Origin: an uncultured Pseudomonadales bacterium
GTDB lineage: Bacteria; Pseudomonadota; Gammaproteobacteria; Pseudomonadales; Azotimanducaceae
Direction: 5' to 3'
DNA: 64,000 bases
Assembly: GCA_964393625.1 (NCBI GenBank)
Contig: CAYMUT010000018.1
Span: forward strand, 33,564 to 97,563
The notes below the pieces were generated by a model. That model was not told where the DNA came from. It did not search any database and saw only the letters and a list, made by a program, of their open reading frames with translations. How positions within the stretch are numbered: position 1 is the first letter of the stretch; the number at the start of each line of letters is the position of its first letter. This document shows positions 44,129-49,472 of the stretch, in pieces. The position numbers and the translations under genes are program-made.

Positions 44129-45175
44129 TTGGGGTCAGTACAGAAACGGGTTCATGAGGTCCAGGACGATCTTCTCAGTGCCATCGACTACTGCTATGAG
44201 CAGGGCTGGACAGATGGGCTGCCGGTGGTGCCGCCGGAGCGATCCCGGGTCGAGGCCATGCTGGGCATGGAAGGCCGGCCGCCGGAAACGGTCATAGCGA
44301 CGCATCCTGCGACCGGGCTTGAATTGTCTATCCATGCCGCCGCGGTCAATGCGGTGATGGCCGGGTGCCTGCCTGAGTACTTTCCTGTAGTGGTGGCTGC
44401 CATGGAGGCCATGGATAAGAAACCATTTACCTTTCACGGCAGTACCGCCAGCACCGGTGGTTCCGCGCCGTTGCTCATCGTCAGTGGACCGGTGGTAGAT
44501 GAGATCGGCATGAACAGTGGCGCTAACCTGTTTGGTCCGGGTAATCGGGCCAACGCGACCATCGGGCGTGCGGTGCGGTTGATCATTCTCAACGTTTTCC
44601 GCATGACACCAGGTATCGCTGACAAATCTACCCAGGGGCACCCCGGCAAATTCAGTTTCTGCATCGCCGAGCGCGGGGATGTTAACCCGTGGCCCGGCCT
44701 TAACGAGGATCTCGGGTATGGCCCGGATATCTCCTGCGTGGTGACTTTTGCCGGGGCTGGTTTCTGCAATGTGGAAAACCATGGCGCCGGCGATGCCGAG
44801 GGAATCCTGCTGTCGGTGGCCGACAGCATGGCCAACCTGGGCTGTATTACACTGGGCCAGAGTGTGGTCGTGCTGTCGCCTGAGCATGCCGGCATCATTG
44901 CCAATGATGGCTGGTCAAAGCAGCGTGTTCAGGAGTTCCTGTTTGAGCACGCGCGGCGCAGTGTCGCGGATATGCAGGAGGCGGGCAAGTACATGACACG
45001 GGAGCATGAACGGCAGGGCAGGGATGACATGCATCGCGGTCTTGGTCCGGAAGACATTCTGATCACGGTTGGCGGCGGTGACGCGGGTGGCCACAGTGCG
45101 TTCATACCTTCATGGAGTCGGGGTAGAAGTTCAATTATGCAGCACCAGGCCATTGGTGTGTGCATTGACTGTTAG
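44129..45175 (+). CDS. hypothetical protein (348 aa), partner of the UGSC selenoprotein candidate
   Basis: No family recognised. TTG start with AGGGGG 7 nt upstream; it is the only in-frame start codon before residue 44. Soluble and Gly-rich, ending in the CxxC-like tail GVCIDC. Its TAG stop sits inside the AGGAGG Shine-Dalgarno of the next gene. Confidence 0.6.
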   Translation: MGSVQKRVHEVQDDLLSAIDYCYEQGWTDGLPVVPPERSRVEAMLGMEGRPPETVIATHPATGLELSIHAAAVNAVMAGCLPEYFPVVVAAMEAMDKKPFTFHGSTASTGGSAPLLIVSGPVVDEIGMNSGANLFGPGNRANATIGRAVRLIILNVFRMTPGIADKSTQGHPGKFSFCIAERGDVNPWPGLNEDLGYGPDISCVVTFAGAGFCNVENHGAGDAEGILLSVADSMANLGCITLGQSVVVLSPEHAGIIANDGWSKQRVQEFLFEHARRSVADMQEAGKYMTREHERQGRDDMHRGLGPEDILITVGGGDAGGHSAFIPSWSRGRSSIMQHQAIGVCIDC

Positions 45176-45183
45176 GAGGCGCA

Positions 45184-45705
45184 ATGGAACTGATTGATCC
45201 CACTGTCGAGGGTGCCGAACAGAATAGATCACGTGCGCCGGCCATAAGCGATCTGCACGGATTGACGATCGGGCTGCTGTCCAACGGTAAAGCGAATGCT
45301 GATCACCTGATCGGAAAGACCGCCGATCTGCTGGTCGAACGGTTCGGCGGCAGGCGCCTCGATGTTCTATACAAGAAACATCCGAGCGAGCCGGCTCCCG
45401 GCGAGCTGCTGACCAACCTTTGCCACGAGTGCGACTATCTGATCACTGCTGCGGGGGACTGAGGCAGTTGTTCAACGTGCAGTGTGCATGACGGAATTAT
45501 GTTCGAACAAATGGGTAAACGTGCCGTAGTGCTGTGCACTACGCCATTTGACGTCACGTCGAAAAATATCGCCAGGGTGCTTGGCCTGGCTGACTATCCG
45601 TTCGCGCTGCTGGAACATCCGCTGGGGTCGCTGGCACAAAGCGAGGTGGATGCCAGAGCCGCGGCCGCGGCTGTGGCGAGCGTGCGGATTCTAACGGCGC
45701 CTTAG
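45184..45705 (+). CDS. UGSC-type selenoprotein candidate (173 aa; TGA 45460-45462 read as selenocysteine)
   Basis: Track ORFs 45184-45462 and 45484-45705 share one frame and are separated only by TGA plus 7 sense codons. The fused sequence reads ...LCHECDYLITAAGD-U-GSCSTCSVHDGIMFEQ.... A strong AGGAGG precedes ATG 45184. No Shine-Dalgarno or ATG serves the downstream piece. A hairpin follows the TGA. Confidence 0.65.
45468..45510 (+). other. candidate bacterial SECIS element
   Basis: Inner hairpin CGUGC-AGUGU-GCAUG (45476-45490; 5 bp including one G-U). The GU-containing apical loop starts 21 nt from the U of UGA. A possible outer helix UUGUUC (45468-45473) pairs with GAACAA (45505-45510). 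Confidence 0.4.
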
Positions 45706-45726: not shown

Positions 45727-46665
45727 ATGGGGCAACTGGTAGACGGGCGCTGGACGAACGAAGATGTTCGTCGCACTGGCGCAAAGGGTGAATTCATCCG
45801 GCCGGAGTCGCCGTTCAGGGCCTGGCTCGGTGGCTCTGCCAATGAATTTCCAGCGGTGTCGGGACGTTATCACCTGTTTGTTAACTCCGGGTGTCCCTGG
45901 GCCTACCGGACAGTGCTCTACAGGCGCTTGAAAGGCCTCGGAGAGCACATCTCATTGTCGCTAACCGAGCCTGCCGCAGGCGCTGAAGGGTGGACCTTTG
46001 GTGATCGAATGGAACCGTTGCTCGGTGCCCGGCACATTCATGACGTCTATAGTGCCGCTGACAGTGCCTTTACTGGCAGGTGCACTGTGCCGGTTTTATG
46101 GGACAAGCAGCGGCGTACCATCGTCAACAATGAGTCTTCTGAAATCATCCGCATGTTGAACAGTGAATTTGACGGGCTCGAGGGGGTGAGCGCAGATGAT
46201 TTCTACCCTGAGGCCAAGCGCGATGAGATCGATGGGTTGAATAACCTCATCTATCGCACGGTGAATAACGGCGTGTACCGATGTGGATTTGCGCAGACGC
46301 AGCAGGCCTATGAAGAAGCCTTCGATGCGCTGTTTGCGACACTCGACGAGATGGATACGAGATTGGCGGATCAGCGCTACCTCTGCGGTGATCGTGTTAC
46401 CGAGGCGGATTGGCGTTTATTTTCGACGTTGATCCGATTCGACGTTGCCTACTACACACAGTTCCGCTGTAATCGGCAGATGATCAAAGACTATGAATAT
46501 CTGTGGCCCTATACGCGCGATCTGTATCAGTACCCGGGTGTGGCCGAGACAGTGAGTATTGATGCGATCAAAGGCATATATTTCGGCAGCAGGCCTCCCC
46601 GGATCATCCCCAAGGGACCCCAGATGGATTTTGAGGAACCCCATGGCAGGGGGCAGTATGTCTAA
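45727..46665 (+). CDS. glutathionyl-hydroquinone reductase (Xi-class GST, YqjG-like)
   Basis: Catalytic motif SGCPWAYRTVLYRRLKGL (the CPWAHR type). RCTVPVLWDK and NNESSEIIRMLN. 312 aa. Confidence 0.85.
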   Translation: MGQLVDGRWTNEDVRRTGAKGEFIRPESPFRAWLGGSANEFPAVSGRYHLFVNSGCPWAYRTVLYRRLKGLGEHISLSLTEPAAGAEGWTFGDRMEPLLGARHIHDVYSAADSAFTGRCTVPVLWDKQRRTIVNNESSEIIRMLNSEFDGLEGVSADDFYPEAKRDEIDGLNNLIYRTVNNGVYRCGFAQTQQAYEEAFDALFATLDEMDTRLADQRYLCGDRVTEADWRLFSTLIRFDVAYYTQFRCNRQMIKDYEYLWPYTRDLYQYPGVAETVSIDAIKGIYFGSRPPRIIPKGPQMDFEEPHGRGQYV

Positions 46666-47827
46666 CGCCCCGGTATACGATATCGATGTTGAACGGTTCC
46701 GGGCCGACCCATACCCGGATCTGGCAGAGATGCGCAGCACCTGTCCAATCGCCTTCGTGCCGCAACTCGGTGCCACCCTGATTACCCGTCGCGCAGACAT
46801 CACTGTGTGTGAGAAAAACACAGCGGTGTTTTCTTCCTATCAGCCTGATGGTCTGATGACGGTGCTCATGGGTGAGAATCTCATGCGCAAAGATGGCCGT
46901 GCTCACATGCAGGAACGCCGGGCGATCTACCCGTCGATGTCGCCCAAGACCGTGGCGGCAGTATGGCGTGAACAGTTCAGCACTGATGCGCAGCGCCTGA
47001 TCGACGGCCTGGCCCCTCAGCAGTCTGCGGACCTGTTCTGGACCTACGCGATGCTGCTGTCGGCGGATGCACTACGGGCGATGACCGGTCTCACCAATAT
47101 GGCCCCCGAAGAAATGAATCGGGTGAGCCAGGGCATGATCGATGGTTGCGCGAACTATACGGGTGATGCTGAGGTGGAGGCGATCTGCAACGACTGCACT
47201 GCCAGCATAGACCGTCATATCGATGAGCGGTTGCCCGAGGTCCGCAGTCAGCCGGATCATTCGCTGTTGTCGGTGCAGGTGCAGGCGGATATGTCGGAAG
47301 AGCAGATCCGCGCCAACATCAAACTGTCGATATCCGGTGGACAGAATGAGCCACGCGACGCCATTGCCGGGGCGATCTGGGCCATGCTGAGGCATCCCGA
47401 ACAACTGGACATGCTGTTGCGTGGTGAAGTGAGCTGGCTGCAGGCGTTCGAGGAGTATTGCCGATGGATATCGCCCATCGGCATGTCGCCGCGGCGCATT
47501 GCGCAGGACTTTGATTACGCAGGCGTATGCTTCGAGCCGGAAGATCGAGTGTTTCTCATGTTCGGTTCAGGTAATCGGGACGAAGCGGTGTTTAGCGACC
47601 CGGACGTATTCGACATTACCCGGGATGTCTCTGCTTCGCTCAGCTTCGGCGCCGGGCCCCACTATTGCGCAGGCGCGTGGGCTTCACGTGCGCTGATCGC
47701 AGATGTGGCGTTGCCGGAATTTTTCAAGCGGGTGCATAATCCCCAGCTCGATGGAGATGTTCCATTTGGTGGATGGGCCTTTCGCGGGCCGCTGGCCCTG
47801 CCTTGTCGTTGGCAAGGGGTCGACTAG
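46658..47827 (+). CDS. cytochrome P450
   Basis: Heme loop FGAGPHYCAGAWASR and ExxR (EEYCRW). AGGGGG precedes the internal ATG 46658. The start overlaps the upstream stop by 8 nt. Confidence 0.85.
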   Translation: MSNAPVYDIDVERFRADPYPDLAEMRSTCPIAFVPQLGATLITRRADITVCEKNTAVFSSYQPDGLMTVLMGENLMRKDGRAHMQERRAIYPSMSPKTVAAVWREQFSTDAQRLIDGLAPQQSADLFWTYAMLLSADALRAMTGLTNMAPEEMNRVSQGMIDGCANYTGDAEVEAICNDCTASIDRHIDERLPEVRSQPDHSLLSVQVQADMSEEQIRANIKLSISGGQNEPRDAIAGAIWAMLRHPEQLDMLLRGEVSWLQAFEEYCRWISPIGMSPRRIAQDFDYAGVCFEPEDRVFLMFGSGNRDEAVFSDPDVFDITRDVSASLSFGAGPHYCAGAWASRALIADVALPEFFKRVHNPQLDGDVPFGGWAFRGPLALPCRWQGVD

Positions 47828-48342
47828 GAAGTCACTTCGCCGATGACCGCTGCCACCGTGCAGTGATAAGAGCGGCTTTCGGTGCCGAAACACCACAGAA
47901 TGTCATTGGCCTTCGACGGGAAATAGACCGGCTTGTCACGTTCAGCCCGGTGACAGAAACACCTGGCGCAGGTGGATTTGCCGCAGCAGTCGTTGTAAGA
48001 AATCAGATAGTCTTTACCGTCCACCGGATTACGGCAGGTGCCGACCCAGGAAATGGGTGAAATCTCTGAGCCTGGCGGGCACGAACTTACCGATCCGCCG
48101 CAGCAGGTGCACAGGGTGCCGCCCAGCGCACAGTAGCGCCAGTAGTCGCAACTCTGTGGGTCACCTATTTCTTCTGGAGGCTGCTGCTCCGCGCGGGCTA
48201 CAGGCAACACCGGCAGCAGGCTGGCGCCGACCATGGTGCTGCCCAGCTTACCGAGGAAACCCCGGCGGGAACTGCGGCGGGCGATCGCGCGGCTCGACGC
48301 ACGGGTCTTGGAATCGATCCATTCAAACAATGTCTGGTTCAT
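47824..48342 (-). CDS. TTQ-type amine dehydrogenase light chain (methylamine/aralkylamine dehydrogenase small subunit family)
   Basis: Tat-like leader SRRGFLGKLG. The Cys-rich mature domain SCDYWRYCALGGTLCTCCGGSVSSCPPGSEISPISWVGTC...DCCG...NDILWCFG...YHCTV is colinear with my memory of MauA. Both TTQ tryptophan contexts (SW and WCFG) are present. Confidence 0.85.
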   Translation of the reverse strand: MNQTLFEWIDSKTRASSRAIARRSSRRGFLGKLGSTMVGASLLPVLPVARAEQQPPEEIGDPQSCDYWRYCALGGTLCTCCGGSVSSCPPGSEISPISWVGTCRNPVDGKDYLISYNDCCGKSTCARCFCHRAERDKPVYFPSKANDILWCFGTESRSYHCTVAAVIGEVTS

Positions 48343-49472
48343 CGTGCGCCCTCCACGCTAAAGCCCTGCAGTAATCCCGGCGCGACACCGACGCTGCCGA
48401 TGCTGCGCAGCAGGACATTAGTTTTCACGTCGTAGACGTGCAGTTGTGAGTCGGCTCCGGTAACTGTGAGCAGCGGATCCTCACCTGGCGAGACATGCAG
48501 GTTGGTCCCGGGTGACGCAAGTTCGAGTCTTGCGATGCGCCGCTGGTTGCTGCGGTCATAAATCCATACTTGCGTACCCGGGTCGTCATGAGAAAACTCA
48601 CCGCCGGGATTCATCAGTACAAACAATAGATCCATGGGCGCATAGTAGGTTTTGAACTGGCCACCGCCGGGTCGCCACCCGGCGGCCAAGTCGTCTGCTT
48701 CGACCAGCGACCAGGGTTCGCTGAATTCGATCTCATCGCCATTCACAACAGCTTCGTGCACTTTGCCGTGGTAGGAAACCATCAGCCATCCCTGGGGTGT
48801 GGCGATGGGTTTGGCGAAGACCGGGTCTTTTTCCAGATCGAAAAACACCTCGCTGCGGCTGCGATCAATTTCAGCGCCATTGTCGTCCAGCTTGATCATC
48901 TGCAGCTTGCCGTCCGCACAGATCTGCAGAAACGTACGATCCGGCGTCGGCATGATCATGGAGCAGGCCGGAGTGGAAATCTCGGTGACGAACTTGCGCT
49001 GTTCAACATCGACAATGCTCACCGACATGGCGGGTGTCAGATTGAATACCGCCAGGTATCGACGATCGTCCATCATCGCAAGGTACTGGGGAAACGACAG
49101 AGCGGCGATCTTGTCGGGAATATCGATTTCGTCAACGACGGCGAAATTTTCATAATCGTAGACGGTCAGCACGTCGTTGCGTTTGCCGCGGGTACCTCGC
49201 GTGAAATAAGACTCTGCGGCATAGATCTCCTGACGTATGGGGTCGTCGACCAGGGCGGGCGTGAATGAAGGCGTGGAAATCATGCCGACCATTTCGCCGC
49301 TGGCGACATCGAGTACATAACGGGGGCCGAATGAATCTCTAGACACGACCCAGCTTGCCTGGGGTTGACCGAGGGTCTCGCGGCTTACCTGCTCGGGCTC
49401 TATGGCAAAGACGCTCTGCATGGTGGCGGCAGTGGCCAGCAGGCCGGCCAGGGCACGTGTTAATGGGCTCAT
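48339..49472 (-). CDS. TTQ-type amine dehydrogenase heavy chain (beta-propeller large subunit)
   Basis: Signal peptide. Colinear with my memory of MauB (FTRGTRGKRNDVLTVYD, GWRPGG, LHVYDVKT). Its stop overlaps the light-chain start (ATGA). Confidence 0.85.
   Translation of the reverse strand: MSPLTRALAGLLATAATMQSVFAIEPEQVSRETLGQPQASWVVSRDSFGPRYVLDVASGEMVGMISTPSFTPALVDDPIRQEIYAAESYFTRGTRGKRNDVLTVYDYENFAVVDEIDIPDKIAALSFPQYLAMMDDRRYLAVFNLTPAMSVSIVDVEQRKFVTEISTPACSMIMPTPDRTFLQICADGKLQMIKLDDNGAEIDRSRSEVFFDLEKDPVFAKPIATPQGWLMVSYHGKVHEAVVNGDEIEFSEPWSLVEADDLAAGWRPGGGQFKTYYAPMDLLFVLMNPGGEFSHDDPGTQVWIYDRSNQRRIARLELASPGTNLHVSPGEDPLLTVTGADSQLHVYDVKTNVLLRSIGSVGVAPGLLQGFSVEGAR

Follow-up and report, generated by a model that had tools for sequence, protein, structure and literature searches.

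A UGSC-family gene with a predicted selenocysteine codon and its conserved partner gene in an uncultured Pseudomonadales bacterium

Introduction

Do two short open reading frames (ORFs) that lie in one frame and are separated by nothing more than a TGA codon represent two small proteins, the remains of a single one, or one selenoprotein? This question is raised by a locus at positions 45184–45705 (+ strand) of a 64,000-nucleotide stretch of contig CAYMUT010000018.1 (positions 33,564 to 97,563; assembly GCA_964393625.1), which originates from an uncultured Pseudomonadales bacterium of the Azotimanducaceae. This whole stretch is called the window in the following, and coordinates without a locus label refer to it. 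A first-pass annotation, made from the sequence alone, proposed that the TGA at 45460–45462 is read as selenocysteine (Sec, U) and that the residues following it mark the product as a "UGSC family (seleno)protein". Here, a computational analysis of this locus, of its homologs and of its surroundings is described. It argues for one Sec-decoded UGSC gene at 45184–45705, to which we assign a probability of roughly 0.9.

The family itself has been described before. A "UGSC-containing protein" was reported as a selenoprotein whose function is unknown and which is also present in Hyphomonas neptunium (PMC1976440, 2007). In the Global Ocean Sampling (GOS) survey, UGSC was the fifth most abundant selenoprotein family with 255 Sec and 21 Cys forms; a UxxC motif, a "likely Trx-like fold" (Trx, thioredoxin) and its fusion with a domain named "Unknown_1" were noted (PMC2398784, 2008). 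Reviews of 2022 and 2026 still give the function as unknown. The gene in the window is a new member of this already-described selenoprotein family and not a discovery.

One reading frame and one family profile across the UGA codon

The ORF at 45184–45462 ends at the TGA at 45460–45462 and is followed in the same frame by an ORF at 45484–45705, the TGA being the sole interruption; the coordinates and the translation quoted in the first-pass annotation were reproduced exactly. Reading through the codon yields LC80HEC83DYLITAAGD-U93-GSC96STC99SVHDGIMFEQ, with the junction region AAGD-U-GSCSTCSVHDGIMFEQMGK. The gene would then be complete with 173 codons including Sec93 and a TAG stop at 45703–45705, and the UGA at 45460–45462 would encode U93 within G91, D92, U93, G94, S95 and C96 of the window protein.

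When U is read as C, the fused sequence matches the Pfam profile PF24696 (UGSC) with 158.1 bits (E = 3e-46; gathering cut-off 25 bits), and residues 2–171 are aligned to positions 1–171 of the 172 profile positions, across the TGA. The NCBIfam model NF041046, "UGSC family (seleno)protein", is matched with 117.4 bits (E = 5.2e-34, again with U replaced by C), residues 26–167 covering positions 2–143 of 147. These two full-length matches bear out the link between the U-G-S-C signature and the family that the first-pass annotation had drawn. The G-D-[U/C]-G-S-C column is present in the window and is at least 90% conserved in two family alignments. The first-pass annotation had also stated that some homologs carry Cys in place of U, and this is indeed seen in the distant homologs P0002–P0008 and among the 150 best representatives of the family, 99 of which have CxxC at the motif. 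The alignment of the fused sequence, proposed earlier as a check, runs continuously over residue 93, with Cys or TGA at that column in the homologs.

Alternatively, the TGA could be a true stop, leaving either a pseudogene or two small proteins of 92 and about 64–73 amino acids. Public gene callers do annotate two pieces, in line with the earlier expectation that a standard caller would split the gene: in public assemblies the gene is present as two "hypothetical protein" entries of 92 and 64–74 amino acids. For the second piece the callers choose an in-frame ATG at 45499–45501 (Met106), giving a product of 64–68 amino acids; the first-pass annotation had overlooked this ATG when it stated that the downstream ORF lacks one. 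Its other statement was right, since inspection of the sequence revealed no Shine-Dalgarno motif before the downstream piece (45484–45705), and this speaks against an independent second gene, as does the Pfam domain that continues over the TGA. The upstream piece is preceded by the Shine-Dalgarno motif AGGAGG at 45174–45179 (+ strand), as had been noted, the spacer to the ATG at 45184 being 4 nt and not 5 nt.

Conservation and distribution of the TGA codon

A second possibility is that a TGC or TGT was turned into TGA by a sequencing or assembly error and that the protein is simply a Cys form, which would fit the existence of Cys forms in the family. At least 23 metagenome contigs carry the N-terminal half-ORF of the window. 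The six of them that were read, independent assemblies of different samples, all have the TGA and an identical fused protein. In addition, the window gene carries codons that are specific for TGA forms (NCG at position 98 and AGU at position 100) and are missing from the Cys forms. The suspicion of an assembly error, raised earlier as a way to refute the selenoprotein, is hereby effectively refuted, and we regard this explanation as hardly credible.

To what extent the TGA is kept in other genomes is seen from a codon-pattern scan over one genome per species (pattern GGN GAY TGA GGN WSN TGY WSN N15 GAY GGN AT). At least 120 genome loci carry the TGA form; every one of the 120 matches listed is a genuine UGSC homolog, and 115 of them could be aligned over the U column. 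Among the matches listed, the hosts belong to the Dehalococcoidia, the Alpha-, Beta- and Gammaproteobacteria, the Methylomirabilota, the Actinomycetota, the Acidobacteriota and the Desulfobulbaceae, and the cultured Reyranella massiliensis 521 is one of the carriers. The nearest TGA-form relatives of the window gene within this set are found in metagenome-assembled genomes (MAGs) of the Gammaproteobacteria/Pseudomonadales (loci L105, L109 and L118). In a Dehalococcoidia MAG (UBA1123), a tRNA-Sec gene with the anticodon TCA (L049:4952-5049) is situated at a distance of about 1 kb from the UGSC gene, which is of the TGA form.

That at least 120 genomes of several phyla keep the TGA at one and the same column is difficult to reconcile with a true stop. 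Furthermore, the half behind the TGA is at least as conserved as the half before it: the downstream half shares 62–69% identity with close relatives, roughly every second changed codon being synonymous, versus 45–63% identity in the upstream half. Therefore, the part after the TGA is translated and under selection. Taken with the missing Shine-Dalgarno motif and the continuous domain, this makes a true stop very improbable.

A third explanation would be that UGA stands for Trp, Gly or Cys instead of Sec, owing either to a reassigned code or to near-cognate read-through. The closest homolog, P0001, shares 48% identity with the window protein, occurs in two independent marine assemblies, and has a TGA at the U column of its DNA; its ENA record shows Trp there (L001:504-1025 and L002:367-888, both short marine contigs). 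This Trp is a gene-caller artefact, because that call runs on over the true terminal TGA as well. These Trp-reading ENA calls were also the sole reason why a full-length TGA-form homolog appeared in the first protein search. Within the window, TGA ends 25 of the 49 long ORFs, including neighbours with full-length Pfam matches, and therefore UGA is not reassigned. Moreover, the homologs have Cys at this column and not Trp. Reading of the UGA as another amino acid is accordingly a very slim option, the more so as the conserved hairpin with a G-U loop described below is of the selenocysteine insertion sequence (SECIS) type.

The size of the family was estimated by a HMMER profile search over 1.84 billion representatives clustered at 50% identity. 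It gave 6210 matches at E ≤ 1e-3, 2208 at E ≤ 1e-10 and 241 at E ≤ 1e-30, the listed ones of the last group being nearly all full-length. That strong matches are few and that many matches are "hypothetical proteins" of 72–78 amino acids indicates that most public family entries are halves of split TGA forms.

The window contains 14 further candidates for read-through of a TGA. The ten most plausible were inspected; those at +1430 and +18159 are true stops with junk behind them, and the remaining eight turned out to be junk frames.

A conserved hairpin downstream of the UGA codon

If the UGA is decoded as Sec, a structural signal would be expected in the mRNA. For its detection, 111 distinct TGA-form sequences were stacked on the UGA in an ungapped alignment, with the U of UGA as nucleotide 1. 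A hairpin of 6 bp, formed by nucleotides 17–22 and 26–31, has standard pairs in 98.0% of the cells of this alignment. Four of the six pairs display compensatory double changes (55 cells), and none of 500 shuffles matches the observed covariation. Control registers, in which the helix was slid along the alignment, gave 11–63% pairing, and RNAalifold predicts the same helix from the TGA-form alignment. In the window this element is CGUGCA-GUG-UGCAUG at 45476–45490 (+ strand), with a stem of 45476–45481 paired to 45485–45490 and an apical loop of 45482–45484 (G23, U24 and G25). The loop nucleotides G23 and U24 are nearly invariant in the TGA forms (99%). Their numbering coincides with that of G23 and U24 of fdhF, which are contacted by SelB.

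As a control, the same pattern with TGY instead of TGA was used to collect 120 Cys-form genes from metagenomes, 105 of which are distinct. The five core pairs occur together in 8% of these 105 Cys forms versus 99% of the TGA forms, and the G23U24 pair of loop nucleotides in 0% versus 99%. Codon 100 has the form NGU in 110 of the 111 TGA forms and in none of the 105 Cys forms. Even where the peptide is identical (SSGSVLD), Ser100 is encoded by AGU in 15 of 15 TGA forms and by UCG in 7 of 7 Cys forms. The Cys-form sample consists mostly of soil Actinomycetota, so that phylogeny is partly confounded with the control; the codon comparison within the same peptide is unaffected by this. That a hairpin with compensatory changes accompanies the TGA forms only is a further argument against a true stop.

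The consensus model of bacterial SECIS elements (bSECIS) has a loop of 3–9 nt, an upper stem of 4–16 bp, a G in the first two loop positions and a distance of 16–37 nt between UGA and loop, together with a free energy of −7.5 kcal/mol or lower (PMC13188914). The geometry of the hairpin in the window agrees with three of the four criteria of this model: the loop is GUG (or A-GUG-U, following the pattern N1-G-[G|U]-N-N2), the stem has 6 bp and the spacing amounts to 19 nt. From covariation and geometry, the element at 45476–45490 is best described as a predicted bacterial SECIS. A lower stem, UUGUUC/GAACAA (45468–45473 with 45505–45510), had been considered as well and was dropped because it is not conserved in the family.

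One TGA-form locus, and only one, lacks the SECIS hairpin. It is found in a Solirubrobacterales MAG (L032:2693-2746), encodes the Cys-form peptide SASAVAD, and may go back to a sequencing error or represent a pseudogene.

The second cysteine of the motif

The first-pass annotation had further compared the spacing U93, C96 and C99 with the UxxCxxC of the selenoprotein B subunits of the GrdB/PrdB type. This comparison did not hold. Residue 99 is Cys in 77 of the 111 TGA forms, the others having Ala (15), Gly (15), Ser (3) or Trp (1), and it is Cys in a single one of the 105 Cys forms. Residues 99 and 102 change jointly, the combinations being C/H (UGC/CAY), A/A (GCC/GCC), G/L (GGC/CUC) and S/L (AGC/CUC), and every one of these keeps the RNA pairs 19-29 and 20-28. 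Therefore, the "second Cys" is an imprint of the SECIS stem and not a conserved catalytic residue. Only UxxC is a feature of the family, and the UxxCxxC motif is illusory.

Homology searches are in line with this. The window protein has no match to PF07355 (GRDB) at E ≤ 1, and neither PF07355 nor Gly_reductase is matched at E ≤ 10 by any of 55 UGSC members or 41 partner sequences. Also no pyruvoyl proprotein (GrdE/PrdA) is adjacent to the gene; the adjoining conserved protein is one without any Pfam match.

A conserved partner of 348 amino acids

This adjoining gene lies directly upstream, at 44129–45175 (+ strand), and encodes a protein of 348 amino acids from an unannotated family with the motifs W27-x-D-G-L-P, N74-A-V-M-A-G-C80 and G136-P-G-N-R. 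Its TAG stop (45173–45175) overlaps with the Shine-Dalgarno motif of the UGSC gene, and the gap between its stop and the UGSC start is 8 nt. From this arrangement, translational coupling of both genes is probable.

The adjacency extends far beyond the window. A member of the partner family adjoins UGSC on the same strand in 106 of 120 Sec-form loci and in 104 of 120 Cys-form loci, that is, in 210 of 240. The gene order differs between both groups: Sec forms mostly have the partner in front of UGSC, and in 93 of the 104 Cys-form loci UGSC precedes the partner. When the search was started from partner homologs on genomes of 5–6 Mb, a split UGSC gene was again found adjacent, with unrelated flanks. 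Additionally, among the 150 best UGSC representatives, 17 join UGSC and partner in a single chain; P0254, for example, matches the window partner with E = 9e-61. The fusions were found only among the Cys-form representatives, all of them in the order UGSC-partner. Pairs in either order and fusions point to an obligatory partnership of UGSC with this unannotated family. The conserved companion of UGSC is the upstream 348-aa gene and not the acyl-CoA or cytochrome P450 genes nearby.

The Cys-form metagenome loci (L129–L248) are mostly soil, Actinomycetota-like sequences. Apparent "fusions" that resulted from long upstream ORFs in the TGA-form genome set turned out to be out-of-frame junk. In a further candidate, a partner-UGSC read-through ORF at about L030:4200-5260, the conserved C-terminal motif of the partner is replaced by unrelated sequence, which is probably due to a frameshift or an assembly error.

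The partner family is very large and strongly conserved: it comprises at least 8000 clusters of homologs, every one of which bears the name "hypothetical protein", with 70–84% identity among the top 120. No match was found in Pfam (E ≤ 10), in NCBIfam (E ≤ 1) or in the PDB by sequence or profile, nor across 41 diverse members. The AlphaFold2 (AF2) model of the partner has a predicted local distance difference test score (pLDDT) of 80 and a predicted template modelling (TM) score, pTM, of 0.84. Cys80, which is invariant among 165 sequences, is placed by the model in a loop just before helix 82–95. C178 is 88% conserved, and the C-terminal CIDC of the window partner is lineage-specific (about 10%).

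Predicted fold and proposed mechanism

An AF2 model was obtained for the homolog P0001 from an alignment of 55 sequences (pLDDT 92.4). It displays an alpha/beta/alpha sandwich with a five-stranded parallel sheet. Its best matches in the PDB are flavodoxin-like domains, namely 3fni (5.8e-5), 4heq, WrbA (2rg1) and lumazine synthase, with TM values of only 0.4–0.5. Position 93 is located in a loop between strand 85–89 and helix 94–109, and C96 in the first helical turn. In the model, this predicted placement of Sec93 and Cys96 is the usual geometry of a redox-active CxxC or UxxC pair.

Two further architectures were observed within the family. In P0354 (502 aa), the UGSC domain is fused to a thioredoxin-reductase-like Pyr_redox_2 domain (pyridine-nucleotide-disulphide oxidoreductase). 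About seven representatives (e.g., P0004, P0267 and P0292) have a C-terminal domain of about 90 amino acids with a CxxC motif, for which a NifU-like Pfam match was obtained in two members only (E = 0.0033).

From these data the following mechanism can be proposed. The UGA at 45460 would be decoded as Sec during translation, with the hairpin just downstream recruiting SelB together with Sec-tRNA(Sec) to the ribosome, as deduced from the mechanism in E. coli. The product would be a protein of about 19 kDa with a predicted flavodoxin-like alpha/beta fold. It would most likely join the 348-aa partner and its invariant Cys80 in a unit of two proteins, of which it would be the selenol/thiol redox subunit. 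It would cycle between the selenol/thiol and the selenenylsulfide state, and an NAD(P)H-dependent flavoprotein would return it to the reduced state. For this redox-partner mechanism, including the presumed physical complex, we see about even odds. The same holds for a broader proposal, in which UGSC and the 348-aa protein form a widespread two-component (seleno)enzyme, the partner being the catalytic component and UGSC its selenol/thiol arm, recharged by a flavoprotein resembling thioredoxin reductase. The features of the partner that enter this proposal are Cys80 at the N-terminus of a helix and the disordered invariant loops STGGS, GPGNR and DKSTQGxPGK.

On the other hand, UGSC might be a free-standing thioredoxin-like antioxidant oxidoreductase, as has been suggested in the literature, for which the adjacency of the partner would be mere operon neighbourhood. 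UxxC motifs are typical of thiol oxidoreductases, and a partner is missing from about 30 of the 240 loci, many of which lie on truncated contigs. However, the predicted fold is flavodoxin-like, with no thioredoxin among the 50 best PDB matches listed for the P0001 model, and a Pfam match to the thioredoxin family is not recurrent in 55 UGSC members, a weak match to Thioredox_DsbH (E = 0.011) being the single instance. Furthermore, the pairing survives the inversion of the gene order, and 17 single-chain fusions exist. A free-standing role of UGSC is for these reasons unlikely.

Several observations weigh against the proposal of a Sec-decoded UGSC protein acting with its partner. On the level of the family, the NF041046 score of 117.4 lies narrowly below the curated equivalog cut-off of 125 bits. 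Neither selA, selB, selC nor selD was found in the 64-kb window, where a tRNA scan gave no tRNA of any kind and a search for SelB and SelD motifs no match, a result that is uninformative for a stretch of 64 kb. With respect to the RNA, the hairpin of the window alone has a free energy of −4.5 to −5.6 kcal/mol, weaker than the −7.5 kcal/mol of the bSECIS model; it is weak because pair 18-30 is a G·U pair here and G-C in most relatives, and at −4.5 kcal/mol its z-score is −2.7. A region of 48–64 nt folds to −9.7 to −11.6 kcal/mol, via a different, non-conserved structure that is no better than shuffles. Likewise, single-sequence folds of 64–101 nt around the TGA are no better than shuffles, and the minimum free energy structure differs from the conserved hairpin. 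No Rfam SECIS family was matched, neither at the gathering threshold in the whole window nor at E ≤ 10 in 45300–45700. On the protein side, the fold model is that of the homolog P0001 and not of the window protein. The model of the partner is without a significant Foldseek match in the PDB and hence has no relative that would hint at its chemistry; the weak matches to class I fumarate hydratase, cyanuric acid hydrolase and RidA (best E = 4e-3, TM ≤ 0.28) were treated as no assignment. Finally, it is gene linkage, fusions and conserved cysteines that suggest the redox-partner role.

Genomic surroundings

The first-pass annotation had considered a selenoprotein within an aerobic-looking acyl-CoA/P450 operon as unusual. 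This view could not be maintained, as acyl-CoA dehydrogenase, enoyl-CoA hydratase, glutathione S-transferase (GST)-like and P450 neighbours recur near UGSC in only 0–5 of the 240 loci and the family is abundant in the surface ocean (PMC2398784). Given this abundance in ocean surveys, it is to be expected, and not unusual, that an aerobic marine gammaproteobacterium carries a Sec-UGSC gene. A third conserved neighbour was not found in these loci, in which only a short-chain dehydrogenase/reductase (29 loci) and a zinc-dependent alcohol dehydrogenase (15 loci) recur.

In the window, 21 nt downstream of the UGSC gene, a protein of 312 amino acids with GST_N_2 and GST_C_2 domains is encoded (45727–46665, + strand), which is not conserved beside UGSC elsewhere. 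Its size and domains hint at a Xi-class GST (glutathionyl-hydroquinone-reductase-like), a guess made from the size only. Further downstream, at 47824–49472 on the − strand, the genes for a methylamine-dehydrogenase-like light chain (172 aa, PF02975) and heavy chain (377 aa, PF06433) are adjacent to each other and convergent with a P450 gene. P450 genes and TetR regulators, two of each, occur in the same region together with a nitroreductase and several acyl-CoA dehydrogenases. With this set of genes, the region looks like a catabolic island.

Significance and comparison with known systems

For genome annotation, the locus is a textbook case, in which a real selenoprotein gene is stored publicly as two "hypothetical proteins". 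It further shows in a clear way how an RNA element dictates a protein sequence, the SECIS stem forcing residues 99 and 102 to co-change. New leads are the unannotated partner, the predicted fold that is not that of thioredoxin, and the residue covariation imposed by the SECIS. The linkage to the partner and the predicted fold make the question of the function experimentally approachable. If true, the two-component proposal would make one of the ocean's most abundant selenoproteins accessible to testing.

Among the known systems, the UGSC family itself (PF24696, NF041046; PMC1976440, PMC2398784) is the closest. The window gene shares with it the full-length match, the motif column, the alternation of Sec and Cys and a host among the marine Proteobacteria, and nothing essential differs in the window member. 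The fold, predicted here to be flavodoxin-like, departs from the "likely Trx-like" fold of 2008.

With the SECIS of the E. coli fdhF type and the consensus bSECIS (PMC13188914, Fig. 2A), the hairpin has in common its location in the coding region just 3' of the UGA and the loop pattern N1-G-U-N-N2. In contrast, the stem in the window is much shorter (6 bp) and without the bulged U17, a conserved lower stem was not found, and no Rfam model corresponds to it.

The dithiol relay of thioredoxin and thioredoxin reductase resembles UGSC in the CxxC or UxxC motif at the N-terminus of a helix, and one fusion of UGSC with a domain resembling such a reductase is present (P0354). UGSC differs from it in the predicted fold, a flavodoxin-like alpha/beta/alpha arrangement, and in the absence of a recurrent thioredoxin match in Pfam.

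For the pairs PrdB-PrdA and GrdB-GrdE (PMC11229817), the likeness is confined to the architecture, a small UxxC selenoprotein that is encoded beside a larger catalytic protein with an essential Cys and probably acts together with it. In contrast to the Stickland fermenters that use them, the carriers of UGSC are aerobes; sequence similarity and evidence for a pyruvoyl group are lacking, and the "xxC" extension is not conserved. If UGSC and its 348-aa partner indeed form a two-component (seleno)enzyme, its layout would be similar to that of PrdA and PrdB, yet evolutionarily unrelated, present in aerobes and embedded in variable catabolic operons.

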